Source: an uncultured Verrucomicrobiae bacterium
GTDB taxonomy: Bacteria; Verrucomicrobiota; Verrucomicrobiia; Limisphaerales; Palsa-1400
Assembly: GCA_963764165.1 (NCBI GenBank)
Contig: CAVXRD010000003.1
Coordinates: forward strand, 704,001 to 768,000
Reading direction: 5' to 3'
Length of the DNA stretch: 64,000 nt
Shown: in pieces, positions 15,077 through 41,122 of the stretch
Layout: each line of letters begins with the position of its first letter
Position numbering within the stretch: the first letter of the stretch is position 1
Program-made: the position numbers and the translations under genes
The notes under the pieces: model-generated
The model's input: the letters and a program-made list of their open reading frames with translations, nothing else
Databases searched by the model: none
What the model was told of the DNA's origin: nothing

Positions 15077-16741
15077 TTATCCAACAACCTCCTGCTGGCG
15101 ATCATCTTCAAAGAGCGGGATCTCGTCGGTTTCGGCGATCTTGCCATAGTCCAATTTGACCAGCCGATCCGCCATGTAGAAATAACGGTCGTCATGCGTG
15201 ATCACCAGCACCGTCTTGCCGCGAGCCTTCAGGTCGGGCAGCAATTTCGTGTAGAACACTTTCTTGAAAATCGGATCCTGGTCGGAGGCCCACTCGTCAA
15301 ACAGGTAGAACGGGCGGTCCTCCAGATAAGCCGTGAGCAACGCCAGGCGTTTGCGCTGGCCGGTGGAGACCGACGTCGTGGAAAGCTTGCCGTTAGTCAC
15401 GCGAATCTTGTGCTTGAGGTGCAGTTGCTCGAGATAACCGCCTGCCCGCGCGTCAATGTCTTTGTCATCGATGCCAAGCAGGTTATCGAAGACAAAGAAG
15501 TCCGAAAACACCGCCGAGAACAACTGGCGGTAAGAGTCACGCGTTTTGTTGGTGACGGCTTTTCCGTCCAGACGAATTTCGCCCCCTTCCGGCAGGTAAA
15601 GGCCGGTGATGATTTTGGCGAGGGTGGATTTTCCGCTGCCGTTGCCACCCACCAGGAACACCAATTCGCCGCGGTTGAAGGCCAGGTCAATCGGCCCCAG
15701 GGTAAAGCTCGTGTCCTCCATTTCGCGATGATAGGTGTGGCTCACATTGCACAGCTCGATGCGCTCAAAGGATTGCTCATTCGCCGGCTTGTCGACTGGG
15801 CATTCTTCAGTGGAGCGCTCAGAAAGGGAAACGCCCAATTCCTGCACCTTTTGCAGTGCCACTTTGGCGCGGCCAAACAGCGAGATGCTGCTCAAGACCG
15901 CCGCCAGCGGCCCCATCATAAACAGCGTCGTCACGACATATCCCGTCATCGTCGCAGTGCTGATGGTCGACATATGAGGCGCCATAAACAAAATCAGCCC
16001 TATCAAGGCGAAGTAAAGCAGGTGGCTCCAGCTCTGCGCCGCCGCGAAGCGAACTTCCGCCGCGACATTGTGCTTTTGAAACGACGTGGTCACATTCTCG
16101 ACGTTGCGGGTCAGAAAGGCGCCCCGGCGGTCGCGGTGCAGTTTCAATTCCTTGATGCCATCGGTGAGCGCGCGGAAGTAGCCGAACAAACGGTCTTCAT
16201 CTTCCCGCGCTGCGCGGCAGTAGCGCAACGCGCTGGATACCACGACGAGATACCCCCCGGCGCCCAGCGCGATGACAACCATGATCGATGCCAGCATTTG
16301 CCACGACAGCCATCCAAGGTATATCGCGCCGCCCGCCAGGATGGCGATGTTTACCGATAAGATCGGCACCGCGAGCAAGGCCTGGGTGATGTTTAGAACG
16401 TCATCGGTCAATGCCGCCAGAATGCGGTGCGTGCCGAGATTCTCCAAATCGCGCAGCGGCACGGCAAGAATTTTTTTCACCAGGTCACGCCGCAATTCGG
16501 CGACGGCGCGCTGCGAGAATCCAGCCAGCACGGCTTGCGACAGGAACAGCGAGACAACTTTGCCAATGCCCAATCCGACGAAAGCCCAAATCAGCCCCCT
16601 GCTCGCAGAACCCGCATTGTTCATGGCCTTCGTAATCAGGGCCATCAGGCCGGCGTTGCAAACGCCGCTCAAGGCCGCCATCCCGATGGTAGCGAAGACA
16701 AGCCCGCGACAAGTGCGGAGGATGAATTTTAATAGCGTCAT
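15077..16741 (-). CDS. Cyclic-peptide export ABC transporter (SyrD/PvdE/YojI family)
   Basis: TM domain plus GGNGSGKST, STGQRKRLAL, LFDEWASDQDP, DGIKELKL; ATGA overlap with the NRPS stop. Confidence 0.95.
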   Translation of the reverse strand: MTLLKFILRTCRGLVFATIGMAALSGVCNAGLMALITKAMNNAGSASRGLIWAFVGLGIGKVVSLFLSQAVLAGFSQRAVAELRRDLVKKILAVPLRDLENLGTHRILAALTDDVLNITQALLAVPILSVNIAILAGGAIYLGWLSWQMLASIMVVIALGAGGYLVVVSSALRYCRAAREDEDRLFGYFRALTDGIKELKLHRDRRGAFLTRNVENVTTSFQKHNVAAEVRFAAAQSWSHLLYFALIGLILFMAPHMSTISTATMTGYVVTTLFMMGPLAAVLSSISLFGRAKVALQKVQELGVSLSERSTEECPVDKPANEQSFERIELCNVSHTYHREMEDTSFTLGPIDLAFNRGELVFLVGGNGSGKSTLAKIITGLYLPEGGEIRLDGKAVTNKTRDSYRQLFSAVFSDFFVFDNLLGIDDKDIDARAGGYLEQLHLKHKIRVTNGKLSTTSVSTGQRKRLALLTAYLEDRPFYLFDEWASDQDPIFKKVFYTKLLPDLKARGKTVLVITHDDRYFYMADRLVKLDYGKIAETDEIPLFEDDRQQEVVG

Positions 16742-19700
16742 GTTGATAATAATGCCGGCTGGTTTTCTGCGGTGGTGGTTTTTTGAGTTTCCTTAAGGGC
16801 TGCCGTCAAATCCGCGGCCAGGGTCTTGACGTTGGGCTCCATAAAGATGTTTTCGTGCGAACCAGGAATGAGTCTGACACTGACTTCTCCCGTGGTGAGC
16901 TTGCCCCAGCTCAAATCATGCGCAAACGAGCAGAGCATCGGATGCCCGCGCGTGCGGAACAGCGCAAGATTCCCCGTGCAGGGCTGCTGCACGTGGCGGT
17001 GAAGGGCTTGCAAATGCTTTCGCCAGAGCTTGAGTTCGTTTTCCGGGAAAAGCGCCGGGTCGATGATTTCCTCCAGGTCGACCGGGGCCTCGCCCTGCTT
17101 TCTCTTGATCCGCTTGGCTATTTTGCGGCCAATCGAGCGAATCTTTCTCCCGACAAAACGCCAGCGGTCGCGGGCCGGAACCTGCTTGAAATCTTCCAGC
17201 CAGTAATAGGTGTTGCGGGCGAACAGGAAGAAGAATTGCGGCTTCCACCATTCCACGGATTCGTAACCGACATTGACCGGCGCGGCATCCAGCAGGGCCA
17301 TCAGCGCAACCTGCGCGCCTTCGGCTTGGAGCTGGCGACCCATCTCGTAGGCCACGTTGCCGCCGAAACAATAGCCTCCGATGTAATACGGCCCCTCCGG
17401 CTGCTGGGCGCGAATGGCCTGCACGTAATACGCGGCCATCTCTTCGATGGTGTCGAATTCCTCCAGGCCAATTTGCCCGCGGGAACGCAGCGCAAAGATC
17501 GGCTGGTCGCGATCCATATGCACCAGCAAATTGGCGTAGCCCCATAGCACATCGCCGCCCGCGCCGTGGACCAGGAACAGCGGCGGCTTGCTGCCATTGG
17601 GCTGAATGGGAATGACCACTGAGTGCGATACGGCGGATTTTGCCTTGGAAAGAACCGCCGCCAATTGGCCGATCGTCGGCGCCTGAAACAAAGTGACAAG
17701 CGGCAGCTTCTGGCCGGTCATCTTTTCGACTTGGGCGAACAGTCGAACCGCGAGAAGCGAATGCCCGCCGAGTTCAAAGAAATCGTCCGCGGTCCCGACG
17801 CGCTCGACGCGCAGGAGCTTCTGCCACAACTCGCAAAGCTCGCGCTCAATTTGCGACTGCGGCGCAACGTAACGGCCGCCCGCCCCCGGACGCAACGCCA
17901 GGCGCGCTTCGATTTTTTGGTGAATTTTCGCGGCGTCGTTCAGTTCGGCGGCAATGGCGCGGCACTTGGTGAATTTCTTCACCGCGCCCGGCGCCGGAGT
18001 GGATTTGCCTTCGGTTGACGCCGGAGCAACGGGCGATTCGCTGCGCGGGGTAAATTCGACTTTGGCCGCAAATTCCGGCGGGAATTGATATTGGCCGCCT
18101 TGCTGGAATTGCGTCCCGATGCTCTCCAGAAAATCCAGCGCGGGCTTGTTCCGCGGCAGCCGCTCGAACGGGACATTCACCCATTTGGAATGGTGCTGCG
18201 CCGCCGCTTTGCCGAGGGCCTGAAGCATGCGATGCTCCACGCCGCGGCCCAGCGCGCGGCAACTCAGGAGGAATGAATCCACCACCAGCGCCTGGCCGCT
18301 AAAACTAAAAATCATCGCTCCGACCAGGCCGTAATCGCCGAAGCGATCCTTCACGGAAACGGTCCAGATTTCGGAGACTCCCGCCAACTGCTTCACTTCG
18401 CTCTCGGTGCGCCGCTTGCCGTTGACGTTGAATTGATTGGTGCGCTGCGTCAATTGTGACACGCGCGCAAGCTGCGCGGGCGCGGCCGGCGCAATGTCCA
18501 CCTGCAATTCCAGCTTGGCTATGAAATCCGCGAAGTTCGTCGATTGCGACTGCAGCTGCTCGCGCAATTGATTTTGCTGATACATCGCGGCGCGGCCCTT
18601 GTCCTCCGCCGTCGTCTTAAGCTGATCGAACGCCCAGCAGTGATCGAGAAATTGCGGGATGGCTGAAACATCTTCGGGCAACTGCAGAGCGAGAACTTCC
18701 GGGCTGTTGCCTTCCACTTCCGCGCATTCGACGGGGTTGTCGTCGATCAGCACAAAGCTATCGAGCCCAAGTTTCAATTCCTGCGCAATGGATTTGATGT
18801 TTTCTGATTTCGATTTCCAATTCACCCGCCACGCGGAAATGTGCTCGCGCAAAATCGGCATGGCGGGCCCTTTTGCGAACACCGCTTCCACGTCCGCTTC
18901 ATCGTTCTTGCTGCAAATCACGAGCAATTTGCCCGCCTCGCGCTGGCGCAGGACAAAATTTTGCAGGGCCACGCGCCCGGCTTCCAAACGAATCCCATTC
19001 GGTCCATCTTCGCCGCAAACGCCCGACCAGAGCGTATTGTCGCAATCCAGCGCGATGACTTTGCACGGAGGACGGCGCAGGGCATGAAATTTCCGGGCCA
19101 GCATGGTGGCCAGCGAGGTAAAGAACAGGGGCGTGTAGGGAATCCGGCCGAGCTCGTCGCCCGCGGGATCATCATAATCCGCCACCGGATACTTCTGTGA
19201 AAGCTCGGCGCTTGTCACGACATGGACGCCGTCAATCCCATGGAGCGTCACGGTGAGCGCCGTTTCTAGATCCTTCAGGGCTTCAGCCTTGGCTGGCTCC
19301 GCCAGCGCCATGCGCGAAGGCGGGCAGAAACAGACCAGCATCGACGCGCCGCCGCGGGCGGCTGCGCTTTGCACCGCGCTGACAAACTCGTCGGCGTGAT
19401 GTTTGATGGCTTGCCCAAATGTCAGCGCGCCGGACGCCCCTGTGTTTGACTCCCAATCATTCAAGCGAATCAGCAAAACATTCAGGCCATTGCGATTGGT
19501 GGCGAGATCGCTTTGGGAATCCAGCAATTGCTGGAAGACCTGATCGTAGGGCGCAAACTTGATCCGGGCGGAAATTTCCAATTCATCCAGCCAGAAGCGC
19601 AGCGGCTCCTCAATCGGCTCTGCCGTGAACGTTCCGCAAATCGCGATGGTTTCGGGCTGCGCGCGCTTGGGGGCTTTCAGTTCCACATCGGCAATCACCG

Positions 19701-22700
19701 TCCGCGGCGCTTCCGCCAGCATTTGCAAAACGGATTGGAAGGAGGCCAGCAATTGCTCAATCGATTTTTGATGGAACAAGCCCGCCTTGTATTCGCACGT
19801 CAGAGCAAGGCCGGCCGGCATTTCGTTGGCTTCAAAGCGGAGGTCGAGCAGCGCGGCTTCGGTGTTGACAACAATGGGAGCGCTCGTGATTCCCTCGCCG
19901 AATTGCGGCAGGTCCGGCGTGTTTTGGTAGAGCAGCGCCACATTGTAAAGCGGATTGCAGCCCGGGCGGCGCTCCACTTTGGCTGATTCCACTATTTTCT
20001 CGAACGGACAATCCTGATGCGATTGGCTTTCGATAATCTCCGCCTTCACCGCCCGCAGCGTTTCGAAGCCCGCCGCCGCGCCGGAAATTTTGAAGCGCAA
20101 TGGCAGGAAGTTCATGAAACAGCCAATGAGACCCTCAATCTCGCGGCGATTGCGGCCAGCCACCACGGTGCCGAGAACCATGTCCGTTTGGCCCGTCCAT
20201 TTGTGCAGGGTAATCGCCAGGGCGGCCATCAGCACCATGAACGGTGTTCCGCCTTCGCGCTGGCTCAATTTCACAATTTCCGCGCTCAACGCCTGCGGCA
20301 GCTCCACCGCAATCCGGCCGACCTTGGCTTCGGTCTGTTCCGCATTATCCGAGTCGGTGGGAAGTTCGACTGCGACAGGCGCGCCCGCCAATTTCTGCCG
20401 CCAATACGCCAGCTCCCTTTGCTCGGTGGCGCCTTGCAGCCAGCGGCGCTGCCATTGGGCGAAGTCCGCGTATTGCACGGGCAGCGGCGCAAAGTTGGGC
20501 GCGCTATTTCCCGAAACGATGGCGCGGTAGCTCGTTTCCAGCTCCCGGAAAAATACGTCCAGCGACCAGCCATCCGACACCGCGTGGTGCATCACAATGA
20601 GCAAAGCGTGATCGGTCGCGCTCATGCGGGCCAGCCTGGCGCGGATCAACGGGCCCCGCTCAAGATCAAATGAGCGATGCGCTTCGGCTTGCAAAACTCC
20701 GGCCAATTTCGATTCGTCGGCACCCGGAATCTCCGTCACCCACACTTGCACGCTCAATGACGGCGCAATTTTCTCCGACAGAACCCCATCAACAAAATGG
20801 AGGGTCGTGCGAAGCGCTTCGTGGCGGTCAATAATCAAATCGAGGGATTTCTGAAGGGCGGCCACATCGAGCGCGCACTTGATGCGGATCGCGGTCGGAA
20901 CGTTGTAAGCGTCGCTCTTCGGCTCAAGCTGGTTCAAAAACCACAGTTGATCCTGCATGAAGGAAGCGGGCAAGACGCCTTCGCGCGAAATCGGCTCCAG
21001 CGCTGGAACCGGCGCATTCGAATGATTCCAGCGCCCCGAATCCACTCCCGCCGCCAGGGCCTCGACCGTCGGCGCATCAAACAAGCAGGACAGCGGCAAT
21101 TCGATGCCGAGGCTTTCGCGCAGGCGCGAGATGACCTGTATGGCGGTCAGCGAATGGCCGCCTAATTCAAAGAAATGATCCGTCGCACCGATATCCTTGA
21201 TCCCCAATACTTCGCTCCAGGCTGCGGCAACCTTCTTTTCGGCATCCGTGCGCGGCGCGATCAATCCCGTGCGGGCTTCGCTCTGCCCAGCCTGCGGGGC
21301 AGGCAGCGCGCGGCGATCCACCTTGCCATTCGGCGTCAGCGGCAATTTTGGCAGGAACACGAATTGCGCGGGGGTCATGAACTCGGGCAAACGCTCCCGC
21401 GTGCAGCGGCGCAAATCATCGACCGAGGCCGTTTTCCCCGCGTTGAACACGACATAGGCCGCCAGATATTTTTCGCCGGGCCGGTCTTCACGCGCGATGA
21501 CCACCACTTCCGCCACCGCCGGATTGGCCTTGAGAGCGATTTCGATTTCGCCCAATTCAATGCGGAAACCGCGAATTTTGACTTGATGGTCGGAGCGGCC
21601 GAGATACGTCAGATTCCCGTCTTCGCGCCAGCGGGCGACGTCACCAGTTTTGTAGATGCGCGAACCCTGCTTGTAAGGGTGCGGCAGAAAACGCTCGGCG
21701 GTGAGGTCGGGGCGGTTCAAATAACCGCGCGCCACTTTATCACCGCCGATATAAAGATCGCCCGTCATGCCCACCGGCAGGGGCTGCATTTGTTTGTCAA
21801 GAATATAGACTTGCTCGTTGGCCAGCGGACGGCCGATGGTCGCCGGTTCGCCTGTTTTGCGCAGGGCGCCCGTCGAATAGGTGGTCGTTTCGGTCGGGCC
21901 GTAAAGATCGTAAACCTTCTTCGCTGACGTCTTGGAATAAATTTGCTCCACCAGCGCGGTGGCCAGCGGCTCGCCCGCAAGATTGACAACTTTGACTGAA
22001 CTGGGCACGCCGTTGATGCGGAGCAATTCGCGCATGGCCGATGGCACGGTGTTGACCAGAGTGACTTCCGAAGCGGCAGGCAGGCCCGGCAGAGCAAGCG
22101 CGTTGTCGGCCAGGATAATTTTTCCGCCCCAGCAGAGCGGAACGAACATTTCGTAAACGGAAAGATCAAAACACATCGAGGTCGACGCGAGCATTCCCGC
22201 GTACTCCTCGGGCAGAAACGCATCCTTCGCCCAGCAGACCATGGCCACGGCGTTGCGATTTTCCAGGGCGACGCCTTTCGGCTGTCCGGTCGAGCCGGAG
22301 GTGTAGAGCACGTAAGCCAAATCGTTTGGCCCGGCTTGATTCAAAGGAGCTGTCTTGTCGGAGATTGGCTGGATGTTCTCGACGAGCAGCACCTGGGTTT
22401 TCGAGGCGGGAATCAATTCGCGGAAACGCTCGCGTGTCAGCAACACGCGCAATCCAGCATCCTGCGCGATGGCCGCCAGGCGCGCCTTCGGATAAGTGGG
22501 ATCCAGAGGGACATAAGCTCCGCCCGCTTGAAGTGTTCCGAGAATCCCGGCCACCATATCCTCGGAGCGCTCGAGGCAGATGCCCACCAAAGATTGGTTG
22601 CCCACCCCTAAAGCTTGCAAACTCTTCGCAATGGTTGCGGCGCGCTCGTAAAGCTCGCGATACGTGAATCGCTTTGTCCCCACCACGAGCGCCTCCGCAG

Positions 22701-25700
22701 TGGGCGTCCGCGCGGCCTGTTCATTGAACAATTGGGCGAGCGTCTTTTCGCGCGGGTATTCCAGTTGCGTGCGATTCCATTCATTCAGAATCGTCTCCGA
22801 TTCCGCCGGGGTCAAAATAGACAGCTTGGACAGGGGCTGTTCCGGCGCCGCGACCAGAGACTGCAGAGCGGTTTCCACATGCCCCAGCATCCGTTGCGCC
22901 GTGGCGCGATTGAACAAATCCGTTGCGTATTCCAATCGGAAAACCGGCCCCAGTTCGTTGTCAAGAAGGCAGAAACGCAGGTCGTATCCCTCCACGATGG
23001 ATGGCGCCTCGGTCGCGAAAAAGACCTGCGCAATCGGGTGATATGAAGAATCCGCCGATGGGCAAATTTGCGCGATGACGTCCTTGAACGGGATTTGCGA
23101 ATGCTGGACGGCGGCAGTTTTGGCGGTGCGAACGCGGTCGAGCAAATCACGGCCCGTCATTTCCGCGGCCATGCGAGTGCGGACCACGGCAATGTTGGCT
23201 TTATGGTCACTGCCCGTTTGCAAGCCAACCGGCAGATCGTCCTGCCCGGAATACCGGTTTAAAACGACATCGAGGGCGGCCAGCGCCAAGGCGGCCCGGT
23301 CGCCGGTTTCCATTTTTGACGCCAGCGAGCGCGGCAAAGGCCGGGTTTCTGTGGCCACCGCTTTGGATAATACCGCTGGACGAGTGCGGTCGGTGGGCAA
23401 TTCCAAAAGTGCGGGTGCGCCCGCCAGCTCACGCTTCCAGAAATCCATATCGAGTTCCCTGCTTTGCTCCAGAACTTTCTTCAGTTCGGCTGCTGTTTCA
23501 TCCACCCAGGGCTCCTCCAAAACCTTCTCATGGGCGCCCTGGACGATGGTGATATTGACTCCGCGGCGGGCGAAATCGCCCCAGCCGTAATCCTGCTCGA
23601 AAGAGCACCATAACGGGTGGCCCGGGCTGCGGAACAGGTGAACACGGCCTTCGTATGGTTTTGGATGAAACTTTCGCAAGGCCAGAATATGGCTTTGCCA
23701 CAATGCGCGCTGGTCAGCCGGAATGGTGGCAAGGTCAACCAGATTTTCCGCGTCATTGGCGGCCGAGCCATTGCCGCCGCCGCCAAGCAAACGGGAAAGC
23801 TTTTGTTTGACACGGCGCGTTTTCCAGAGAATGAAATCGTGGCGCTGGGCCGGGGTCCATTGCCGGCAGTAATCGGCCCAGTAAACCAGATTTTTGGCGA
23901 ACCGCAGCCCCCACGCAGGGGTATAACTGAATTGGGTGTAGCTCGAGTTCGGCGGAGCGCAATTGAGCAGCGCCAGCAAGGCGACTTTTTCGCCCTGCGC
24001 CTCGATTTGCCGCGCCATTTCAAAGGCCACGTTTCCACCGAAACAATATCCGCCGAGATAGTAGGGGCCGTGCGGCTGGATGCGGCGCATATCCTTGACA
24101 TATTGCGCGGCCATTTCCTCCATGGTGTCGAATTCCTGGTGGCCGTTCAGCCCGCGGGAACTCAATCCGTAGACAGGCTGGTCCGCGCCAAGCCGGCGGG
24201 CAAGATTCACGTAGCCCCAGAACATTCCGCCACCCGCTCCGTGGACGAGAAATAACGGAGGCTGTGTTCCCTTGGGCTGCAACTCGACAACAGACGTTCC
24301 GGCGGTGGCGCTTTCGTCGCGAATCTCGTCACGCACCACCACTGCCAGCTTCTCCACGGTCGCCGCGGTAAAGATCGCCGCGAGCGGCAGTTTTTTCCCG
24401 AAGGCCTTCTCAATGCGCGCGGAAACTTTGACGGCCAGCAGCGAATGGCCGCCCAGATCGAAAAAATTATCCTCGATGCCAACGGGTTCGACGCCCAGCA
24501 CGCTTTCCCAAATGCGGCACAGCTCCAATTCGACAGCGTCCCTCGGTGATGCGTATTTGCGCGTCAATGTGGGACGGGCGTGGTCCGGCTCCGGCAGGGC
24601 GCGGCGATCCACTTTCCCGTTGTGTGTCAGCGGAAGGGATTCGATTTGCACGAACGCCGAAGGAATCATGTATTCCGGAAGATGTTCGCCAAGAATGGCG
24701 CGCAACTGATTCGGCTTGGGCGCGAGTTTTCCATCCGGGACATAGTAGGCCACCAGGCGGGTCTGGCCGGCTCCGGAGCCGCAGACTTTGACCGCGCATT
24801 CGCGCACGCCAGGGCAGCGTCCCATCACGGCTTCGATTTCGCCCAACTCGATGCGATAACCGCGCAGCTTTACCTGGTTATCGATGCGGCCCAAATACTC
24901 GACGTTCCCATCCGGGAGCCAGCGGGCGAGGTCCCCGGTGCGATAGAGGCAGACACAGGGGCTGTCTGCGCTAAATTGATGAAGAACAAATTTCTCAGCG
25001 GTGAGCTCCGGACGATTCCAGTAGCCCTTGGCCAACCCGTCGCCACCGGTATACAACTCGCCCGGAACGCCAATTGGGACCGGATTGCGATTCGCGTCAA
25101 GTATATAAACCTGGGTATTCGAGAGCGGCTTGCCAATCGGCACGTTCGTCGCATTTTCTGGAATGTCGCGCAGGAGAGCGCAACAGGTGAATGTCGTGTT
25201 CTCGGTCGGGCCGTAACCATTGACGAGGCGGTGCGGCGGGCGGTCTTTGAGCACCGCGCGCACCCATCGCGCATCCAGCGCTTCGCCGCCGGCCATCACG
25301 GTCCGCATGGTGGCAAACGCGCCGGGAACCTCCGAGGCCACCTGGCTGAACAATGCCGAGGTCAGGAACATCGCGGTGATGCCCTGCTCGCGCAATTCCG
25401 CCGCAAAATCCTTCGGCGAGAGCGCAATGTCCGTTGCGATGCCGCGCAATTGCCCGCCGTTGAGCAGCGAGCCCCAAATTTCAAACGTCGCCGCGTCGAA
25501 AGACATGTTCGACACTTGGGCGATGCGGTCGGTCGCATCCAGCTGGATATAGTTCGTCTTGAAAACCAAACGATTCACGCCGAGATGCGGCACGGCCACG
25601 CCCTTGGGCTGGCCTGTCGAGCCGGAGGTGTAAATGATATAGGCGGTGTCCGTCGGCTTGGTGCGATTTGGAAGATTCTCGGCGCTCTCGCGCTGGATTT

Positions 25701-27555
25701 CGTCCGCATCGGCATCGAGGCAAATCGCGCGCAGGCCGCGATGCGGCAAGTGCCGCAGCAAGCTTTGCTGTGTCAATAATACACCGGTTCGCGTGTCGCT
25801 GAGCATGAAGGCCAGGCGTTCCTTCGGATAACGCGTGTCCATCGGAACATACGCCCCGCCCGCTTTCAAAATCGCCAGCAGCCCGATGATCATGCTGGGC
25901 GAGCGCTCCATGCAAATGGCGATGGGCGCGGCTGGGTCAAATTTCTGCCGCGCGATGACGCGGGCAAGCCGATTGGCGCTTTCGTTCAATTCGCCATACG
26001 TCATCGTCTCCCGGCCGAACACCAGCGCCACCGCGGCCGGCGTCGCCCGGGCCTGCGCCTCGAACAATTCGTGAATGCATTGCTGGCGCGGATAATCGGT
26101 CGCGTTGTCGTTCCATTCCACCAGCACGCGGCGGCGTTCGGCTTCGCCCAAAATCGGCAAATCCGAAAGGCGGCGCACCGGTTCGATCACCACGCTGCGA
26201 AGCAGATTCTCGTAATGCTCCAGCAGCCGTTCCATGGTCCCCTGCTCGAAAAGGTCGCAATCGTATTCCACCAAAGCCACCATTGAGCTGCCAAAATCCT
26301 GCACCACAAACGTCAAATCGAATTTCGCCGTCCCCGTATCGGTCTCGACGTGCTCCACCTGCAATCCCGGCAGCGTCATCGCGCCGTTGTTGACAGTCTT
26401 GGCCTGCAGCGCGAACATCAGCCGCGTGAAGGCCAGATGCGCCAGCGAGCGTTCCGGGCGAAGCGATTCCACGACGCGTTCAAAGGGCAAATCCTGATGC
26501 GCGTAAGCGCCGAGGGCCGCAGCCCGCACGCGCTGGAGCAATTCATCAAAGGTCGGGTTGCCCGCGAGGTTGGCGCGGAGCAAAAGCGTATTGACAAAGA
26601 ATCCGATGAGCCCCTCGGTTTCAAGGCTGTTGCGCCCCGACACCGGCGTTCCAACCACGACGTCCTCAAGGCTTGTGTAACGATGCACCAGCGCCTGGAA
26701 CGCGGCCATCAACACCATGAAAAGCGAGGACTGCCGTTCCGCGGACAATTGTTTCAAACGCGGGCCGAGGTCCGGGCTTAACCGGCGCGTCACCGTCCGT
26801 CCCCGAAAAGCCGGAGTGCGCTCGCGCGGCTTGTCAGTCATCAATTCCGTGATCGGCGGAGAGCCGGCCAGTTGCGTTTTCCAATATTGGAGCTGGTCCT
26901 GAACGGACTCGCCGCTGAGCTTCTGCTTTTGCCAGTCGGCGTAGTCGGAGTATTGAATCGGCAGCTCGGGCAATTGCGCTTTGCGGTTTTCGATTTGCGC
27001 TTTGTAAAATTCTTCCAGCTCGCGAAACAGCACATTCAGCGACCACTCGTCGGAGGCGATGTGATGCAGATTCAGCACCAGCATGTGATCGTTGGAGGCA
27101 AGGCGCACCAATGACGCCCGCAGCAGCGACTCCGTGCTGGCCAGATTGAACGGGCGGCGGACTTCTTCGCGGATCCATTTGTCCGCCTCCGCCGCATTGG
27201 GCATGTCCACGACGCGCAGCGCGAAATCGAATTGGTTCGAAATCACCTGCACCGGCGTTTCCGCCGAGCAAACGAAACGGGTGCGCAGCGTCTCGTGGCG
27301 CTTGATGATGTTCCTCAAGGACTGATCGAGAGCGATTACGTCCAGCGAGCCTGTCAGGCGCAGGACGGACGGAACATTGTAAAGGGGGCTGTTCGGATGC
27401 AGTTGATCCAAAAACCACAACCGCTGCTGGGCGAAGGAAAGCGGGCTTTGGTTTTCGCGGCGCGAGGCCTGCCGCAAGCGCTCGGCCAATCTGGCTCTTT
27501 TCTCTTCCGCGGTCTGTGCGGGCGCTGGTTCTACTGGGGAGGTAGAGGTAGTCAT
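16738..27555 (-). CDS. NRPS 3: C-A(Val/Ile)-T-TE(Cys)-partial C-A(Ala)-T-C-FkbH-T-TE(Cys)
   Basis: C motifs HHIASDE and HHAVSDG; two YTSGSTGQPKGV A domains; three GGHSL carriers; two GYCFG thioesterases; FkbH motifs LDCDNTLW, DDNPVE, QRTNQFN, LSCR; 3605 aa. Confidence 0.95.
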   Translation of the reverse strand: MTTSTSPVEPAPAQTAEEKRARLAERLRQASRRENQSPLSFAQQRLWFLDQLHPNSPLYNVPSVLRLTGSLDVIALDQSLRNIIKRHETLRTRFVCSAETPVQVISNQFDFALRVVDMPNAAEADKWIREEVRRPFNLASTESLLRASLVRLASNDHMLVLNLHHIASDEWSLNVLFRELEEFYKAQIENRKAQLPELPIQYSDYADWQKQKLSGESVQDQLQYWKTQLAGSPPITELMTDKPRERTPAFRGRTVTRRLSPDLGPRLKQLSAERQSSLFMVLMAAFQALVHRYTSLEDVVVGTPVSGRNSLETEGLIGFFVNTLLLRANLAGNPTFDELLQRVRAAALGAYAHQDLPFERVVESLRPERSLAHLAFTRLMFALQAKTVNNGAMTLPGLQVEHVETDTGTAKFDLTFVVQDFGSSMVALVEYDCDLFEQGTMERLLEHYENLLRSVVIEPVRRLSDLPILGEAERRRVLVEWNDNATDYPRQQCIHELFEAQARATPAAVALVFGRETMTYGELNESANRLARVIARQKFDPAAPIAICMERSPSMIIGLLAILKAGGAYVPMDTRYPKERLAFMLSDTRTGVLLTQQSLLRHLPHRGLRAICLDADADEIQRESAENLPNRTKPTDTAYIIYTSGSTGQPKGVAVPHLGVNRLVFKTNYIQLDATDRIAQVSNMSFDAATFEIWGSLLNGGQLRGIATDIALSPKDFAAELREQGITAMFLTSALFSQVASEVPGAFATMRTVMAGGEALDARWVRAVLKDRPPHRLVNGYGPTENTTFTCCALLRDIPENATNVPIGKPLSNTQVYILDANRNPVPIGVPGELYTGGDGLAKGYWNRPELTAEKFVLHQFSADSPCVCLYRTGDLARWLPDGNVEYLGRIDNQVKLRGYRIELGEIEAVMGRCPGVRECAVKVCGSGAGQTRLVAYYVPDGKLAPKPNQLRAILGEHLPEYMIPSAFVQIESLPLTHNGKVDRRALPEPDHARPTLTRKYASPRDAVELELCRIWESVLGVEPVGIEDNFFDLGGHSLLAVKVSARIEKAFGKKLPLAAIFTAATVEKLAVVVRDEIRDESATAGTSVVELQPKGTQPPLFLVHGAGGGMFWGYVNLARRLGADQPVYGLSSRGLNGHQEFDTMEEMAAQYVKDMRRIQPHGPYYLGGYCFGGNVAFEMARQIEAQGEKVALLALLNCAPPNSSYTQFSYTPAWGLRFAKNLVYWADYCRQWTPAQRHDFILWKTRRVKQKLSRLLGGGGNGSAANDAENLVDLATIPADQRALWQSHILALRKFHPKPYEGRVHLFRSPGHPLWCSFEQDYGWGDFARRGVNITIVQGAHEKVLEEPWVDETAAELKKVLEQSRELDMDFWKRELAGAPALLELPTDRTRPAVLSKAVATETRPLPRSLASKMETGDRAALALAALDVVLNRYSGQDDLPVGLQTGSDHKANIAVVRTRMAAEMTGRDLLDRVRTAKTAAVQHSQIPFKDVIAQICPSADSSYHPIAQVFFATEAPSIVEGYDLRFCLLDNELGPVFRLEYATDLFNRATAQRMLGHVETALQSLVAAPEQPLSKLSILTPAESETILNEWNRTQLEYPREKTLAQLFNEQAARTPTAEALVVGTKRFTYRELYERAATIAKSLQALGVGNQSLVGICLERSEDMVAGILGTLQAGGAYVPLDPTYPKARLAAIAQDAGLRVLLTRERFRELIPASKTQVLLVENIQPISDKTAPLNQAGPNDLAYVLYTSGSTGQPKGVALENRNAVAMVCWAKDAFLPEEYAGMLASTSMCFDLSVYEMFVPLCWGGKIILADNALALPGLPAASEVTLVNTVPSAMRELLRINGVPSSVKVVNLAGEPLATALVEQIYSKTSAKKVYDLYGPTETTTYSTGALRKTGEPATIGRPLANEQVYILDKQMQPLPVGMTGDLYIGGDKVARGYLNRPDLTAERFLPHPYKQGSRIYKTGDVARWREDGNLTYLGRSDHQVKIRGFRIELGEIEIALKANPAVAEVVVIAREDRPGEKYLAAYVVFNAGKTASVDDLRRCTRERLPEFMTPAQFVFLPKLPLTPNGKVDRRALPAPQAGQSEARTGLIAPRTDAEKKVAAAWSEVLGIKDIGATDHFFELGGHSLTAIQVISRLRESLGIELPLSCLFDAPTVEALAAGVDSGRWNHSNAPVPALEPISREGVLPASFMQDQLWFLNQLEPKSDAYNVPTAIRIKCALDVAALQKSLDLIIDRHEALRTTLHFVDGVLSEKIAPSLSVQVWVTEIPGADESKLAGVLQAEAHRSFDLERGPLIRARLARMSATDHALLIVMHHAVSDGWSLDVFFRELETSYRAIVSGNSAPNFAPLPVQYADFAQWQRRWLQGATEQRELAYWRQKLAGAPVAVELPTDSDNAEQTEAKVGRIAVELPQALSAEIVKLSQREGGTPFMVLMAALAITLHKWTGQTDMVLGTVVAGRNRREIEGLIGCFMNFLPLRFKISGAAAGFETLRAVKAEIIESQSHQDCPFEKIVESAKVERRPGCNPLYNVALLYQNTPDLPQFGEGITSAPIVVNTEAALLDLRFEANEMPAGLALTCEYKAGLFHQKSIEQLLASFQSVLQMLAEAPRTVIADVELKAPKRAQPETIAICGTFTAEPIEEPLRFWLDELEISARIKFAPYDQVFQQLLDSQSDLATNRNGLNVLLIRLNDWESNTGASGALTFGQAIKHHADEFVSAVQSAAARGGASMLVCFCPPSRMALAEPAKAEALKDLETALTVTLHGIDGVHVVTSAELSQKYPVADYDDPAGDELGRIPYTPLFFTSLATMLARKFHALRRPPCKVIALDCDNTLWSGVCGEDGPNGIRLEAGRVALQNFVLRQREAGKLLVICSKNDEADVEAVFAKGPAMPILREHISAWRVNWKSKSENIKSIAQELKLGLDSFVLIDDNPVECAEVEGNSPEVLALQLPEDVSAIPQFLDHCWAFDQLKTTAEDKGRAAMYQQNQLREQLQSQSTNFADFIAKLELQVDIAPAAPAQLARVSQLTQRTNQFNVNGKRRTESEVKQLAGVSEIWTVSVKDRFGDYGLVGAMIFSFSGQALVVDSFLLSCRALGRGVEHRMLQALGKAAAQHHSKWVNVPFERLPRNKPALDFLESIGTQFQQGGQYQFPPEFAAKVEFTPRSESPVAPASTEGKSTPAPGAVKKFTKCRAIAAELNDAAKIHQKIEARLALRPGAGGRYVAPQSQIERELCELWQKLLRVERVGTADDFFELGGHSLLAVRLFAQVEKMTGQKLPLVTLFQAPTIGQLAAVLSKAKSAVSHSVVIPIQPNGSKPPLFLVHGAGGDVLWGYANLLVHMDRDQPIFALRSRGQIGLEEFDTIEEMAAYYVQAIRAQQPEGPYYIGGYCFGGNVAYEMGRQLQAEGAQVALMALLDAAPVNVGYESVEWWKPQFFFLFARNTYYWLEDFKQVPARDRWRFVGRKIRSIGRKIAKRIKRKQGEAPVDLEEIIDPALFPENELKLWRKHLQALHRHVQQPCTGNLALFRTRGHPMLCSFAHDLSWGKLTTGEVSVRLIPGSHENIFMEPNVKTLAADLTAALKETQKTTTAENQPALLST

Positions 27556-30500
27556 TTGAGTTCCTTCTCATCCAATTCCAACAGCAACTCTTCAACTTCA
27601 CTGTCGGAAAGCTCGTCGATGCGATCCAAAAGACGCTGGGCTCGCGACGTTTCATTTCGGCGGAGTTCAATGCCAGGCTGCGAGGCAGTTTGCCGTTCCG
27701 CGGACACGACTTCGCGGGCCATTCCCGCGACGGTGGGCGATTCAAAAATGACGCGCACCGGCAATTCGATCTGCAATGCCTTGGCGATGCGGGACACAAT
27801 CTGCGTCGCCAGCAGGGAATGTCCGCCGAGGTGGAAAAAATTGTCGTTGATGCCGATCCGGTCCCGTCCGAGGATTTCACGCCAGATGTCCGCGAGCAAA
27901 ATCTCGGTCGGATTCCGCGGCGCTTCGCAGGCCTCGGCTTCCGCTTTTGCGAGTTCCTCGGGAGCGGGCAGCGCGCGGCGATCCACTTTTCCGTTGGGCG
28001 TCAGCGGCAGCTTGTCCATCGGCACGATATGCGACGGGACCATGTAGGATGGCAGCTTGATCGAAAGAAATTCGCGCAACTGAAGGCTGGCAGGCGACGT
28101 GTCCGCGCGCAGCACGACATAAGCGACCAACTGTTTCGTGCCCGAATGATCTTCCCGCGCCACCACCAGCGCCTCACGCACCGATTCATGGGTCATCAAG
28201 GCGGCCTCGATCTCACCCGGCTCAACCCGGAAGCCGCGAATCTTCACTTGTTCATCTTTGCGCCCGATGAATTCGACATTTCCATCTGGGAGCCAGCGCG
28301 CCAAGTCGCCGGTTCTATAGAGATGCTCCGGGCCGAACGGATTGTGGACAAATTTTGAATCCGTAAGTTCCGGACGATTCACATAACCGCGCGCGACGCC
28401 ATCTCCGCCGATGTAAATTTCCCCGATCGCGCCCTGGGCCACGGGCCTCATGGCAGCGTCCAAAATATAAATTTGCGTGTTCGCGATTGGCCGCCCAATC
28501 GGCACTGAGGCGCGGCCAGCCCAATTTTTTGGCACGCGATAGCAGCAGGTAAATGTCGTGTTTTCGGTCGGGCCGTAACCATTGATAAATTGCGTGTTCT
28601 TCAATTCCCGCACGGCCTTGAGCACATGCGGAACGGATAGCGCCTCGCCTCCGGCCAGCAGGAAACGCAGGCCCTGCAAGCTGGCCAATTGGTTGTCAAT
28701 CATTTGATTGAACCAGCCGGAGGTCAGCCAGAGGGTCGTGATTTTATGCCGCTGCACGAAATGGCCCAATTCCTCCAAGGACGGCATTTGCGGCGGATGC
28801 AAAACCAGTTTCGCGCCGTTGGCCAGGGCGCCCCAAATCTCAAAGGTCGACGCGTCGAACGAAAGAGTCGCCAATTGCAGAAAAACATCGTTTGGGCTGA
28901 ATTCGACAAAGTCCGTATTCCGCACCAAGCGCCCTATTCCGCGATGTGTCACGGCAACCCCCTTCGGCCGGCCAGTCGAGCCGGAGGTATACATGATGTA
29001 GGCCATATCCGTCGCTTTGGGCGCGCGGACTGGGCTGTTGCGGAGACGGCCGCCACCGACCGGCCAATTTGGATTGTCGAGGCAAAGAATCTGTTCGCCA
29101 GGGGCTGGAATGGCGCCACGGTAGCGTTCGCGGGTTACGACAAGGCTGGCCTTCGAGTCTTCCAGCATCATCGCATTGCGGGAAGCTGGATTGGCGGGAT
29201 CGAGCGGAAGATAAACCGCGCCCGTTTTCAAAATCGCGATGAGCGCCACAATCATGTCAAGCGAACGCTCGACGCAAAGGCCGATCACCGTCTCCACCCC
29301 TGCCCCGGCTTCGGTGAGTTTCGCCGCGACCAGGTTGGCGCGATGATTCAACTCGCCATAGGCGATTTCGCCATCTTCGCAGACCAGCGCAATGGCCGCC
29401 GGATTTTTGGCAACCTGCTTCTCGAAAAGCTCATGCGCGCAGGCGTCACGCTCGTATTCGTTCGCCGCACCCAACCCAAGCTTCATCGATTTCTCGCGCT
29501 CCGTGTCGGTTTCCAATTCAAATTCCGAAATGCGCAGCGCGGAATTCGCGAGAATATTTTCAACGAGAACGCGGTATTGCTTCGCCCAGCGCTCAATCGA
29601 GGGCGCGTCATACAAATCCGTGCTGTATTCGATGCGAATATCGAGATGGCGCCTCCCTTCCGTGACCAGCAGCGTGAAATCGAATTTCGCGGCGCCGCTC
29701 TCGAGTTCGACCCGACTGGCGTTCAAGCCAGGGATCGTCCAGCCGTCCGAAAAATCCCGCTGCAAGCCAAAAGCCACCTGGAAGAGCGAATTGGCGGCCA
29801 AATTCCGTTCACCGCCGAGGGCGCGGACGAGATAATGCAGCGGCGGTTGCTGCCCCGCGCCAGCGCTCATCGACGTCTCGCGAACGCGCTTGAGCAGCTC
29901 CGCAAAGGTGGGATTGCCAGCCAGACCGATCCGCAGGGCGCGAGTATTGACAAAGAAACCGATCAGGTTTTCGGTTTCCAATTCGTCGCGTCCCGAGAAG
30001 GGGGAACCAATCACCAAATCTTCCTGCAAAGTGGCGCGTTGAAGCAAAATGGCAAAGGCTGAAAGCAACACCTGGTAGACTGTCGAACCTTCTTTGCGCG
30101 CGAAATCCTTCAGTTTCGCCGCGAGCGGCTCGGGCCAGTTTGCGAACAGCGCCGTCCCGCGATGGCTCGTCATTGCCGGGCGCGGACGGTCTCCCGGAAA
30201 ACTGGTGAGCGGCGGTGCGCCGGCGAGCTGCTTCTTCCAAAATTCCACGCCTTCCCGCATCTGATCGCTCTGGGACATTTCGCGCTGCCACAGCGCGAAA
30301 TTGCCGTATTGAATCGGGAGTTCGGGAAGATCTGACTCACGGCCAGCGTCAAAGGTTTTATAAAGCGCCGCGAGTTCACGAAGGAAAACGCCCACCGACC
30401 ATGCATCGGAAATGATGTGATGCATGTTGATGGCGAGAAGATTCTTCCGGTCACTGACACGGAAAAGGCTCACGCGCATCAGCGGCTCTTGGGTCAAGTC

Positions 30501-30848
30501 GAAGGATTTTCTGGCATCCGCCCCGGCGAGACGGACCGCCTCGGCCTCACCGCTGGCCTGTAGCCGAAGATCGGTAACGGACAGCGGAAAAGGCTTGGGC
30601 GGAAAAACGATCTGGCAGGGCTTGCCATCCTTGGAACCGAGCGCGGTGCGCAAACTTTCGTGGCGGCGCACGATTTCGTTCACGGCATATTGCAGCGCGG
30701 ATAGGTTCAGGGCGCCATCGAGCCACCACGCCTCGGCGATATTGTAGGTTGCCGTGTTGGGCGTGGCTTGCTCAAAAAACCAGAGTCCCTCTTGTGGCCA
30801 TGACAGGGGGAGCACGCCTGCCATATTTTGAACCGATTGGTCCTGCAC
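27552..30848 (-). CDS. NRPS 2: C-A(Val)-T with acidic C-terminal docking helix
   Basis: HHIISDA, YTSGSTGRPKGV, code read as DAFWLGGTFK, GGHSL, tail IDELSDSEVEELL. Confidence 0.95.
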   Translation of the reverse strand: MQDQSVQNMAGVLPLSWPQEGLWFFEQATPNTATYNIAEAWWLDGALNLSALQYAVNEIVRRHESLRTALGSKDGKPCQIVFPPKPFPLSVTDLRLQASGEAEAVRLAGADARKSFDLTQEPLMRVSLFRVSDRKNLLAINMHHIISDAWSVGVFLRELAALYKTFDAGRESDLPELPIQYGNFALWQREMSQSDQMREGVEFWKKQLAGAPPLTSFPGDRPRPAMTSHRGTALFANWPEPLAAKLKDFARKEGSTVYQVLLSAFAILLQRATLQEDLVIGSPFSGRDELETENLIGFFVNTRALRIGLAGNPTFAELLKRVRETSMSAGAGQQPPLHYLVRALGGERNLAANSLFQVAFGLQRDFSDGWTIPGLNASRVELESGAAKFDFTLLVTEGRRHLDIRIEYSTDLYDAPSIERWAKQYRVLVENILANSALRISEFELETDTEREKSMKLGLGAANEYERDACAHELFEKQVAKNPAAIALVCEDGEIAYGELNHRANLVAAKLTEAGAGVETVIGLCVERSLDMIVALIAILKTGAVYLPLDPANPASRNAMMLEDSKASLVVTRERYRGAIPAPGEQILCLDNPNWPVGGGRLRNSPVRAPKATDMAYIMYTSGSTGRPKGVAVTHRGIGRLVRNTDFVEFSPNDVFLQLATLSFDASTFEIWGALANGAKLVLHPPQMPSLEELGHFVQRHKITTLWLTSGWFNQMIDNQLASLQGLRFLLAGGEALSVPHVLKAVRELKNTQFINGYGPTENTTFTCCYRVPKNWAGRASVPIGRPIANTQIYILDAAMRPVAQGAIGEIYIGGDGVARGYVNRPELTDSKFVHNPFGPEHLYRTGDLARWLPDGNVEFIGRKDEQVKIRGFRVEPGEIEAALMTHESVREALVVAREDHSGTKQLVAYVVLRADTSPASLQLREFLSIKLPSYMVPSHIVPMDKLPLTPNGKVDRRALPAPEELAKAEAEACEAPRNPTEILLADIWREILGRDRIGINDNFFHLGGHSLLATQIVSRIAKALQIELPVRVIFESPTVAGMAREVVSAERQTASQPGIELRRNETSRAQRLLDRIDELSDSEVEELLLELDEKELK

Positions 30849-30922: not shown

Positions 30923-33900
30923 TTAAACACCCGCTTTGACCACGCGGGCGCGGCGATTTGTGATTGTGGGACGCGGCGTCGAAGCCGCTTTCGCACCCTG
31001 CATCAATCCCGCCAGCGATGCCACGGTGGGATTCTCGAAAATCGCACGCAACGGCAGATCCAAGCCGAACCGGCGATTAATCCGGGCGAACGCCCGCGTG
31101 GCCGAAAGGGAGTCCGCGCCCAATTCAAAGAAATCGTCCTCGATGCTGATTTGGCGGAGAGTAAGAACTTCCTCCCAAACTTCCACCAGCGCCTTTTCCT
31201 GTTCGTTGCGCGGGCCGACGTAATTTCGCGGTGAAGCGCTCGTTTCCTCGGGTGTGGGAAGTCGGTTCACATCGATTTTGCCATTCGGTGTGAGCGGAAA
31301 TTCCTTCAACGCGACGAAGTGCGCGGGAACCATGTAGCCAGGCAGTTTCGCGCGGAGGAATTCACGCAATTCCGCCGATTCCGGCGCGCCGTTGCGTGTC
31401 GTAAGGTAAGCCACTAACCGCTTCTCACCGGCGCCGATTTCGCGGGCGGTGACGACGGCATTGGTGATCTCCTCGTGCTGGCGGAGGATCGTTTCGATTT
31501 CGCCCAGTTCGATGCGGAACCCGCGAATTTTCACCTGTTGATCGGCGCGGCCAAGGCACTCGACAGTGCCATCCGGCAGATAACGCGCGAGGTCGCCCGT
31601 TTTGTAAATGCGGCTCTTGCCATCGTTGCGGAACGGATCAGCGATGAATTTATCAGCCGTCAATTCAGGCCGGCCAAGATAACCGCGCGCAAGGCCGTCG
31701 CCACCGATGTGCAATTCGCCCGCCACGCCGACAGGTACGGGTTGGAGTTGATGATCGAGAATGTACAACTGCGTGTTGGCAAGCGGACGGCCGATCAAAA
31801 TCGGGCTCTTCGGCTCTACTTTCCAAGCTGTCGACCAGATCGTCGTTTCCGTCGGGCCGTAGAAATTCCATAAGCCCGCGACTTTTCCGGCGAGGCCGTC
31901 CGCCAGGGTGCGGGTGAGGGCCTCGCCGCCGCAGAGGACGCGAAGATCGCGTTTGCCAGCCCAACCGGATTCAATCAACAAGCGCCATGTTGTGGGTGTT
32001 GCCTGCATGACGGTGGCTTCGGAGGATTCGATCAACTCGGCCAGGCGAGGCCCGTCAGCCGTGACGGATTGCGGGGCCAGTGTCAATTGCGCGCCTGAAA
32101 TCAGCGGAAGGAAAATTTCAAGACCCGCAATGTCAAACGAAAGCGTGGTCACGCTGAGTAACTTGTCCGTTGCCTTGAAGCCGATGGTTTTGCCAGCCGA
32201 GAGGAGTAGATTCACCACCGCTTGATGACCCACTTGCACGCCTTTGGGCCTGCCAGTGGAACCGGAGGTATAAATTACGTAAGCAAGGCCGTCGGACTTC
32301 GAGGTCGAGGTGACGTTTTCGTCGGCGCGCCCGTAATCGAGCGAATCAACGGAAATCACGTCGCCATCCAAAATCGGAACTGATTGCAAGGCACTGTTCT
32401 CGGTGACGAGAACCGTCACCTTCGCATCGTCGAGCATGAAGGAGAGGCGGTCGCGGGGGAATGCAGGGTCAAGCGGTACGTAAGCCGCGCCAGCTTTCAG
32501 AATTCCCAGCAATCCGGCCACCATGTTCACGGAACGGTCGACACAAATGCCCACCAACGTGCCCGGGCCGACTTCCAGGCTCTTCAGTTTTGCGGCGACG
32601 TCGTAGGCGCGGCGGTTGAGATCGCGATACGTCAACTTTTCCCCACCCGCCACGACAGCGATTTGCGCAGGCACTTCGGCGGCTTTGCGCTCGAACAAAC
32701 TGTGAATCGTCTCGGTTTGCGGATAGGACTCCTCGGTTTTGTTCCATTCCACCGTCAACCGTTCCCGCTCAGCCGCAGGCATTGGCGAGAAGGTTTCGTA
32801 GCGGGCATTTGGATCCTGCGCCATCGCGCGAATAGTGCTGCCATAATAGGCTGACATTTCCTCAATTTGGCGGCGGCAAATTCGGTTCGGATCGTAATCA
32901 ATGTGGTATTCCAATTTCGTTCCCGTCGTGTCGAGAATGAACGACGTGAAGGCCGGGAGATCGTTCGCTTCAAAATAATAGCCGTCGCGCAAATCAATCC
33001 CGCCTTGGAGATCGTTGTAGACGTGGAATTGCACGAAATCGAAGGCGGATTCGAACACGGGACGCCCGCCGTTCAGTTTCGTGACTTCCGCCAGCGGGAA
33101 CCTGCGATAGGGGGCGATTTCGCGCTCCGCGGCAAAGCATTGCTTCACCAATTCGATCCACGTCCCGCCTTTGAGTGAGAAGCGCAGCGGCAGCGTGTTC
33201 AGGAACAGGCCGATCACTTTTTCGCCATCGACGACTTCCGGGCGGCCGTTGCACAGGAGGCCGCTCATGACTTCGTTCTGTCCGTAAATGAGGCTCACCA
33301 CGCGTTGATGCGCGGCGAGCAAAACTGTCTTGAGCGGCACGCCGGCACGGCGGGCCAGCTCTTTCAAGCCTTGCAGAACTTCAGCGTCAACAAACGTTTC
33401 CGGGCCGCGCTTTTGTTCGAGCCCGCCTTCGCACATGGATTTCGGCCAGCGCGGCATCGTTTGCAGATTCGCGCCCGCCAGTTTTCCGGTCCAAAATGCG
33501 CGCGTCTCGGCATCGGCGATCGTCTTCGCTTCGAGCGCGGCAAAATCGCGATAGGTGGTCTCCGGCGGCGCAATAACTTTGCCACCGCCGCTTCGCAGCG
33601 CCGCGTAGTCCTCCATGATTTCCGTCAAGACTGCGGCGAGGCTCCAGCCGTCCATGCAGGAATGATGGAAGCTGATGATGAACTGGAATGAATTTTCCGA
33701 CAGCCGCTGCGCGTGAAATCGGATGAGCGGCGCCGTCGTCCGGTCAAATGGCATCCGCTTTTCGTTCTCAATCCAATCGACGACAGATTTCTCCTGCTTG
33801 TCCGGCGCGAGGTCGCGCAGATCGTCCACCGTCAGGCGGAATCGCGCCTGGCGGTGCACCAATTGCAGCGGCTCGCTGTAACCAGCGATGTGGAATGAAG

Positions 33901-35935: not shown

Positions 35936-36074
35936 ATTAGAAATCAATGCTCCGCCAGAATAAGGCATTGAAAAGTCGATCAAATAGGGACTTGAACCCA
36001 ATTGGAATTGCCGAACGCCCGCATCCCGTTAGCTTTCCATTGCATCAAATGTGAAACCCCTCTAATCATTGCCA

Positions 36075-41087: not shown

Positions 41088-41122
41088 GATGAAAGATTTC
41101 GGCTCGATCGGAACAAGCTCGC

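Follow-up and report, generated by a model that had tools for sequence, protein, structure and literature searches.

Ester-forming modules that join a condensation (C) domain to an FkbH domain and a thiolation (T) carrier are known from the vioprolide, corramycin, and cystomanamide pathways, where they stand at the start or inside of the assembly line (PMC8949500, PMC10099666, PMC9581180). The cystomanamide line has an internal C-FkbH-PCP (peptidyl carrier protein) module, the fourth of five, that esterifies glycerate to the aminoacyl chain (PMC9581180, PMC8949500). Here we describe a nonribosomal peptide synthetase (NRPS) that ends in a C-FkbH-T-thioesterase (TE) module. It is encoded on a 64,000-nucleotide stretch of DNA (the window; assembly GCA_963764165.1, contig CAVXRD010000003.1, positions 704,001 to 768,000) from an uncultured Verrucomicrobiae bacterium with a 7.0 Mb, 97% complete genome (G000). 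Comparison with related genomes leads us to a tentative proposal, which we place a little short of an even chance: modular NRPS arms, one of them ending in alanyl-glycerate, may decorate an undecaprenyl-linked polysaccharide repeat unit through Cys-TE transacylases, with a "peptide exporter" of the ATP-binding cassette (ABC) type recruited as flippase together with its own Wzy-like polymerase, and such systems may be widespread in Verrucomicrobiota.

Architecture of the terminal glycerate module

The NRPS is encoded by three minus-strand genes followed by an ABC exporter. The last gene is an open reading frame (ORF) of 3,605 amino acids (27555-16738) with the domain order C-A-T-TE1-halfC-A-T-C-FkbH_N-FkbH-T-TE2, where A is adenylation. 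The features of the NRPS and its exporter are as follows.

30923..36001, minus strand: NRPS gene 1, A(Thr/Ser-type)-T-C(dehydrating type)-A(Gly-type)-T (domain scan, A-domain signature)
27552..30848, minus strand: NRPS gene 2, C-A(Val-type)-T (domain scan, A-domain signature)
24316..27453, minus strand: module 4, C-A(Val/Ile-type)-T, end of the first arm (domain scan, A-domain signature)
23461..24288, minus strand: TE1, internal Cys thioesterase with Asn replacing the triad Asp (LLNCA); Asn-type TEs form their own clade (alignment)
22786..23460, minus strand: half C domain, C-terminal lobe alone, no HHxxxDG (Pfam Condensation positions 194-456 only)
21031..22755, minus strand: A5-T5, starter of the second arm, signature DLYNNALTYK
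19681..20988, minus strand: C6, condensation domain before FkbH (HHAVSDG), predicted to be ester-forming
19081..19680, minus strand: FkbH N-terminal extension (FkbH_N / NEX) (ESM Atlas matches)
18103..19065, minus strand: predicted FkbH glyceryl-loading domain (DCDNT, CSKN, DDNPVE, LSCR; TIGR01686; kept in 6/6 aligned genomes)
17641..17853, minus strand: T6 carrier (GGHS motif)
16786..17613, minus strand: TE2, thioesterase at the terminus, with a Cys-His-Asp triad (Asp at position I) and a long amphipathic lid of aromatic and basic character (alignments, AlphaFold model)
15077..16741, minus strand: PvdE/SyrD-class ABC exporter, overlapping the NRPS stop (TIGR01194, 518.8 bits, cut-off 286.2)

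The initial annotation of this DNA placed an intact C-FkbH-T-TE(GYCFG) module at 16790-20970. All of the motifs it named were located, and the span agrees with the extent from C6 to TE2. C6 carries HHAVSDG at residue 2323 (nucleotides 20589-20569), and FkbH follows directly instead of an A domain, as in the vioprolide and cystomanamide modules. The FkbH region (residues 2831-3151) scores 304.1 bits against TIGR01686, above the cut-off of 146.65, and contains both the DxDxT motif of HAD proteins (DCDNT, 19047-19033) and the conserved Cys (LSCR, 18267-18256). The GGHS of T6 lies at 17769-17755. TE2 has its GYCFG at 17376-17362, an Asp after strand 6 (LLDAA, 17295-17275), and a His (GSHE, 16863-16849). 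The predicted nucleophiles are Cys3396 in TE2 and Cys1171 in TE1. TE2 is followed by a stop codon, and no C-A-T module extends the glyceryl thioester. Two features were absent from that annotation: a second GYCFG thioesterase in the middle of the protein (TE1), 43% identical to TE2 and followed by the half C domain, and the 200-residue NEX domain. The NEX region matches ESM Atlas clusters at 0.94-0.95, with PF21211 in 24-68% of their members, and has no match in the Pfam copy used; the domain is described in PMC12304814.

The window and the cystomanamide line share the order of C domain, FkbH, and carrier; cystomanamide has glycerate joined to an aminoacyl chain, and the same is predicted for the window. 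In cystomanamide the glycerate is internal and is extended with Tyr, and no internal TE is listed for that line, whereas in the window it comes last and faces a Cys-TE. Module 2 of vioprolide and corramycin (FAAL-ACP-C-HAD-T) likewise pairs an ester-forming C with FkbH (PMC8949500, PMC10099666), but it uses a fatty-acid donor at the start of the line, whereas the window would use an Ala-type donor at its end. The precedent first cited for the window was vioprolide; its C-FkbH ester module does apply, and cystomanamide provides another (PMC9581180). A literature search, mostly of open-access papers, found no terminal C-FkbH-T-TE and nothing on these Verrucomicrobiota clusters or on NRPS-decorated Wzx/Wzy polysaccharide. 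For carenaemin, a polyketide synthase (PKS)/NRPS locus and a Wzy locus are genetically linked, and the accessible text gives no mechanism of this kind (PMC8313283).

The full architecture of about 3,600 residues is intact in 5 further genomes of the family at 61-69% identity, and a GxCxG TE is retained in all of the best 87 of 120 listed FkbH-T-TE homologues. The anatomy of the terminal arm was compared in 41 homologous ORFs with a visible A-T-C-FkbH, drawn from 70 GTDB loci and 76 metagenome loci, some possibly from the same organism. The C domain before FkbH is intact in 41/41, and these C domains cluster together in a FastTree tree that carries no support values. Together with the motifs and the published precedents, this supports the glycerate loading and ester formation predicted in the initial annotation. 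In 39/40 assessable homologues, no intact C lies upstream of the A domain that supplies the glycerate step. This A domain is preceded by a full-length C without the second His (18), a half C (12), a TE directly (6), or the protein start (3); of the remaining cases one has an intact C and one is cut off. An intact C before the Ala module is found in L041, P0262, and split-gene loci such as L219 and L231. The lack of an intact C upstream of A5-type domains indicates that the terminal part is a self-starting arm, predicted to make alanyl-O-glyceryl-S-T. The signature of A5 probably specifies Ala by the A-domain code, and an Ala-type or Pro-type signature precedes C-FkbH in nearly all homologues. 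P0247, where glycerate is internal, is the sole homologue noted with an extended glyceryl module.

The A-domain signatures of arm 1 presumably specify Thr/Ser-like, Gly, Val, and Val/Ile residues, again by the A-domain code. The C domain after the Thr/Ser-type module (34081-32747, minus strand) is of the dehydrating McyA-C1/AmbE kind, matching McyA C1 at E 8.5e-121 and AmbE at E 3.4e-63. If the dehydro residue sits at a free N-terminus, the likely outcome is a 2-oxobutanoyl or pyruvoyl cap.

Co-inheritance with a glycan pathway

Genes for a GT2 glycosyltransferase, a nucleotidyltransferase (NTase)-fold protein, a phosphopantetheinyl transferase (PPTase), WecG-STAS, and a GT4 glycosyltransferase lie 10-15 kb upstream of the NRPS start on the same strand.

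45685..46830, minus strand: GT4 glycosyltransferase, marker of the co-inherited glycan pathway
46847..48295, minus strand: WecG/TagA-family glycosyltransferase fused to STAS domains (domain scan)
48282..49061, minus strand: PPTase in the glycosyltransferase operon, in the same place in G011, G133, G175, G210, and G265
49054..50202, minus strand: NTase-fold protein (model pLDDT 94)
50180..51064, minus strand: GT2 glycosyltransferase (domain scan)
56356..57579, minus strand: phosphodiesterase-family protein, upstream of GT2 in related operons (domain scan, related operons)

The distribution of these genes was determined in 301 genomes of the order, mostly at least 80% complete. A close TE clade, delimited at E <= 1e-90 where the scores show a gap, is present in 37/301. 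The GT4 orthologue is found in 37/37 genomes with this clade compared to 39/264 others, the NTase-fold gene in 34/37 compared to 45/264, and the close ABC in 35/37 compared to 1/264. Within the five mixed families, co-occurrence has a p of about 2e-4, although kin are not independent and the p-values therefore overstate the effect. A Wzy/O-antigen-ligase-like protein (PF04932, about 10 transmembrane segments) occurs at the close level in 34 of the 37 TE genomes and in only 2 others. The 76 GT4-positive genomes divide into 34 with the ABC only, 34 with the pathway Wzx only, 2 with both, and 6 with neither. The Wzx-only count includes the unpublished GT4-positive genome G263 and is 33 without it. 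ABC-only and Wzx-only states are both found inside three families. Three genomes from outside the sample (G017, G022, and G025) carry the NRPS and the ABC, have GT4 in 3/3 cases, and have no close Wzx. A search of G000 with the Wzx query used here gave no match for the pathway's flippase at E <= 0.001, and the genome has three Wzx-family genes unrelated to it. The co-inheritance across genomes and the near-exclusion between Wzx and the ABC suggest that the NRPS likely decorates a surface polysaccharide.

The glycosyltransferase operon of the window corresponds, in other genomes, to a polysaccharide locus of the Wzx type that includes a priming sugar transferase. The Wzy-like cassette occupies the flippase site in G149, G189, G137, and G097, compared to the Wzx type in G216, G229, G119, and G258, and the ABC of G293 lies between WecG/GT4 and the Wzz/Wza export genes. 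G000 contains the genes of a Wzy-dependent pathway (priming transferase, glycosyltransferases, Wzy-like, and Wzz/Wza) at C3:656-669 kb and in the window operon. The glycosyltransferase operon abuts the NRPS in G001 and G011. WecG/GT4 or GT2/NTase genes are directly linked to the NRPS in 7/37 genomes and also at Opitutales-titled loci, and an NRPS-adjacent WecG is found in G001, G011, G003, G137, G149, G173, and G189. Even in genomes with the NRPS at another site, the PPTase gene remains in the operon of the glycosyltransferases. In G173, which has the glycerate arm alone and a single TE match in the genome, the ABC and PPTase are beside WecG/GT4. Single-module A-T-TE(GYCFG) genes occur with an ABC beside WecG/GT4 at L188, L205, and L248. 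Related Cys-TE modules with a GWCYG motif directly precede Wzx in 6/6 mapped operons (G229, G196, G159, G142, G298, and G012).

The NTase-fold protein belongs to a nameless family with 1,831 matches that marks these glycan operons. It has no Pfam or NCBIfam match, and its weak Foldseek matches to aminoglycoside nucleotidyltransferases (E about 6e-3) suggest that it may modify a sugar.

Thioesterases and the route of release

The AlphaFold model of TE2 (pLDDT 92.8) places the triad Asp at the end of strand 6, which is position I; no acidic residue is present in the loop that follows strand 7. The nearest folds are the NocB TE (Z 26.7), AB3403 (26.6), the skyllamycin TE and EntF (25.6), and Pks13 (25.4). 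The best profile match of TE2 in the PDB is the TE of Acinetobacter AB3403 (E 2.8e-28), which shares the GxCFGG Cys and the position-I Asp but is itself uncharacterised and belongs to a plain C-A-T-TE protein with no FkbH. The Pks13 TE, whose nucleophile is Ser, superimposes on TE2 with a root mean square deviation of 2.2 over 201 residues; its Z is within about 1 of several other TEs, and the fold match is no proof of shared function. In a tree of 143 TEs, the GYC group splits into an Asn clade, whose TEs are either internal or at the end of a line behind a hydrophobic residue, and TEs with Asp, which stand after FkbH-T or Val-type modules.

The initial annotation had offered two fates for the glyceryl thioester, lactone closure or transfer to an external acceptor such as a sugar. 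The comparative data favor the second, and transfer to a sugar is the best supported release option. A TE that releases its chain onto a sugar has precedent in Pks13, also a type I TE, although that enzyme is PKS-borne and its acceptor is trehalose (PMC9210659). No TE-glycosyltransferase fusion was found among the 150 representatives searched.

The proposed pathway would start with FkbH, which, from its family membership and motifs, would load glycerate from 1,3-bisphosphoglycerate onto T6. C6 would esterify the Ala on T5 to a glycerate hydroxyl, probably the 2-OH by analogy. Arm 1 would yield a dehydro-Thr/Ser-Gly-Val-Val/Ile chain ending at TE1, a predicted Cys-His-Asn enzyme that would pass the chain on to the amine of Ala or else to another site on the shared acceptor, two routes that the data do not separate. 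The co-inheritance suggests that TE2 would acylate a sugar of the WecG/GT4/GT2 pathway at the cytoplasmic face. The gene swap suggests that the adjacent PvdE-class ABC would replace Wzx in flipping the bulky decorated unit, which a dedicated Wzy/WaaL-like enzyme would then use. The central part of this pathway is the leading explanation, at about even odds: TE2 would be a Cys transacylase placing alanyl-glyceryl, perhaps with the arm-1 peptide, on a lipid-linked polysaccharide unit, to be flipped by the ABC and used by the Wzy-like enzyme.

Several observations weigh against polysaccharide decoration. The NRPS is not found beside glycosyltransferase genes in 30/37 genomes, many of them fragmented assemblies, and in the one-contig genome G294 the two are 1.3 Mb apart. 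The three other Wzx-family genes of G000 could serve as flippase. Lineage bias may sharpen the contrast, since the Wzx search started from a genome lacking the ABC and the Wzy search from G000. The glycan pathway is present without the close TE clade in 39 genomes, 24 of which have no TE match at E <= 1e-50, so decoration would be optional. G293 (84% complete) has the ABC and the Wzy-like gene but no TE match. The ABC scores above the cut-off of TIGR01194, a cyclic-peptide exporter class that is not known to include glycan flippases. An Ala-O-glyceryl thioester with its amine free should readily close to a morpholinedione unless it is capped first. In several homologues, TE1 and a His-less C flank a basic-residue A-T unit for which no onward route is apparent. 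The basic amphipathic lid of TE2 is non-discriminating because Ser-type relatives also have it, if more weakly; as evidence of membrane association it counts as weak, the comparison having covered related TEs only.

The strongest competitor, which we judge somewhat unlikely, is a small secreted depsipeptide. TE1 would splice the tetrapeptide onto arm 2, at the Ala amine or the free glycerate hydroxyl, TE2 would release the product by hydrolysis or morpholine-2,5-dione closure, the ABC would export it, and the glycan genes would be co-regulated or act later. PipB (pseudotetraivprolide/detoxin), FrsA (FR900359), and the salinamide system combine two TE-ended lines in which the first TE esterifies a hydroxyl of the second (PMC12828459). 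The window fits this PipB/PipC logic in that TE1 ends arm 1 and the predicted glycerate of arm 2 offers a free hydroxyl, as PipB, FrsA, and Sln9 require; the known lines are separate proteins and PipB has a Ser nucleophile, whereas the window arms are fused and both TEs have Cys. The position of TE1, which stands where a C domain would be, and homologues with the orders TE-deadC-A, TE-halfC-A, TE-A, and even C-A-T-TE-A-T-TE-A-T also suit splicing, and an exporter of the cyclic-peptide family suits secretion. However, the arms are not always together. Asn-type TE lines occur in G149, G189, and G137 with no glycerate arm found in the genome, and G173 has the converse; these genomes are 92-97% complete. 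The existence of single-module A-T-TE genes disfavors plain hydrolysis, which would be a futile cycle. The intact C before Ala in P0262, L041, and L219/L231 would block morpholinedione closure, and a depsipeptide leaves the Wzx/ABC exclusion and the Wzy-like gene unexplained.

Export of the peptide before glycan attachment is improbable. The peptide would be joined to glycan outside the cytoplasm by a Wzy/WaaL-like oligosaccharyltransferase at the glycerate hydroxyl, or would govern polysaccharide synthesis as a signal through STAS/SpoIIE regulators. The co-distributed membrane protein does match O-antigen ligase and O-glycosylation ligase models, below the NCBIfam cut-off, and the operon does contain STAS and SpoIIE domains. 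Such a glycan would have to be flipped all the same, and no pathway Wzx was found in 34/36 ABC genomes. G000 also retains Wzz/Wza for chain length and export, which points to a polymer.

Closure of a beta-lactone by TE2 through the glycerate 3-OH, an ObiF1-like reaction that the initial annotation thought conceivable, is very improbable and was rejected on triad layout and substrate range. TE2 has the Cys nucleophile of the ring-closing ObiF1 and SulM TEs, and a 2-O-acyl glyceryl thioester would have a free beta-hydroxyl. ObiF1 and SulM place the triad Asp at position II, after strand 7 (PMC11298585), whereas TE2 has it at position I and TE1 has Asn there. TE2 also has Tyr-Cys-Phe instead of the SulM-type Gln-Cys-Asn motif, and AB3403 shows that Cys with a position-I Asp occurs outside lactone formers. 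TEs of the same clade follow Val-, Pro-, and Ala-type modules that lack glycerate and a beta-hydroxyl, and glycerate is internal in P0247, so beta-lactone formation is not the shared function of the clade. ObiF1 and SulM TEs are not among the TE2 profile matches at E <= 1, which excludes nothing by itself, nor are their structures (6N8E / 8W2C) among the fold matches listed, which does not exclude the family.

The idea that the internal TE and half C are gene-fusion debris, with both arms hydrolysing to products unrelated to the glycan, fits the low conservation of the half C (24% invariant residues over six genomes, the least conserved part) and the split, frameshifted, or shortened homologues of the L051 and L184 type, but it is hardly credible because TE1 (47% invariant) is as conserved as catalytic domains such as TE2 (44%), Cys and His are invariant over 72 sequences, and hydrolysis of a single-residue arm would be futile.

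Decoration of a surface polysaccharide with an ABC replacing Wzx would, if our tentative proposal is confirmed, represent a novel type of system. These abundant uncultured Verrucomicrobiota would then use their main NRPS family, present in 37/301 genomes of the order, for cell-surface biosynthesis rather than antibiotic-type metabolism, building a peptide-bearing capsule or exopolysaccharide on an assembly line that does not involve the ribosome. Cys-type TEs would have a role beyond forming beta-lactones and lactams, and a TE would stand in for, or end at, the C-domain position inside a protein. A PvdE-class ABC would act as a glycan flippase.

Neighboring genes and variant assembly lines

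After the ABC, with little or no gap, the minus strand encodes a GH15 trehalase-like protein (13253-15073), a nitroreductase (12371-13075), and FtsH (10459-12384), an order preserved in close relatives alone. The GH15 neighbor was considered as a clue to a trehalose acceptor and dropped; it is adjacent only in G000, G001, G011, and L173. Small plus-strand ORFs at 36920-37452 and 36159-36581 resemble, by eye from their translations, an antitoxin and RelE/ParE-type toxin pair. This putative addiction module sits between the NRPS start and the glycosyltransferase genes. Secreted-looking LamG/lectin/Ig repeat genes occupy the plus strand at 38940-45536 and 52929-54797, and these insertions split an operon that runs uninterrupted in G001 and G011; similar interruptions are seen in G133, G175, and G210.

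A possible origin of the half C from the His-less C that precedes Ala was considered. The half C of the window best matches ordinary C domains at 30-35%, and its less decayed homologues (L044, L047, and L054) best match the His-less C group. In 18/40 homologues a full-length C without the second His is retained between a basic-residue A-T and the Ala module (examples are G191:C43, G151:C24, G086:C29, and G294:C1). The PKS-NRPS lines L113:6313-18309 (G137:C8), L089, and L097 have the order C-A-T-TE-A-T-TE-A-T, with a Cys-TE in the C position of two consecutive modules and no terminal TE. Related lines at L160 and L165 begin with A-T-sulfotransferase, contain KS-AT-ACP-aminotransferase modules, and end in the same Cys-TE clade. 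FkbH-T-TE proteins of about 1,000 residues with Ser or other Cys motifs are found among P0088-P0120, and P0093, P0094, P0097, and P0098 are FkbH-T-sulfotransferase-C-T-TE proteins; these make up additional groups. The source genome encodes a second FkbH, a stand-alone protein of 622 residues in a polysaccharide-looking locus (G000:C2:744741-746606; L167).

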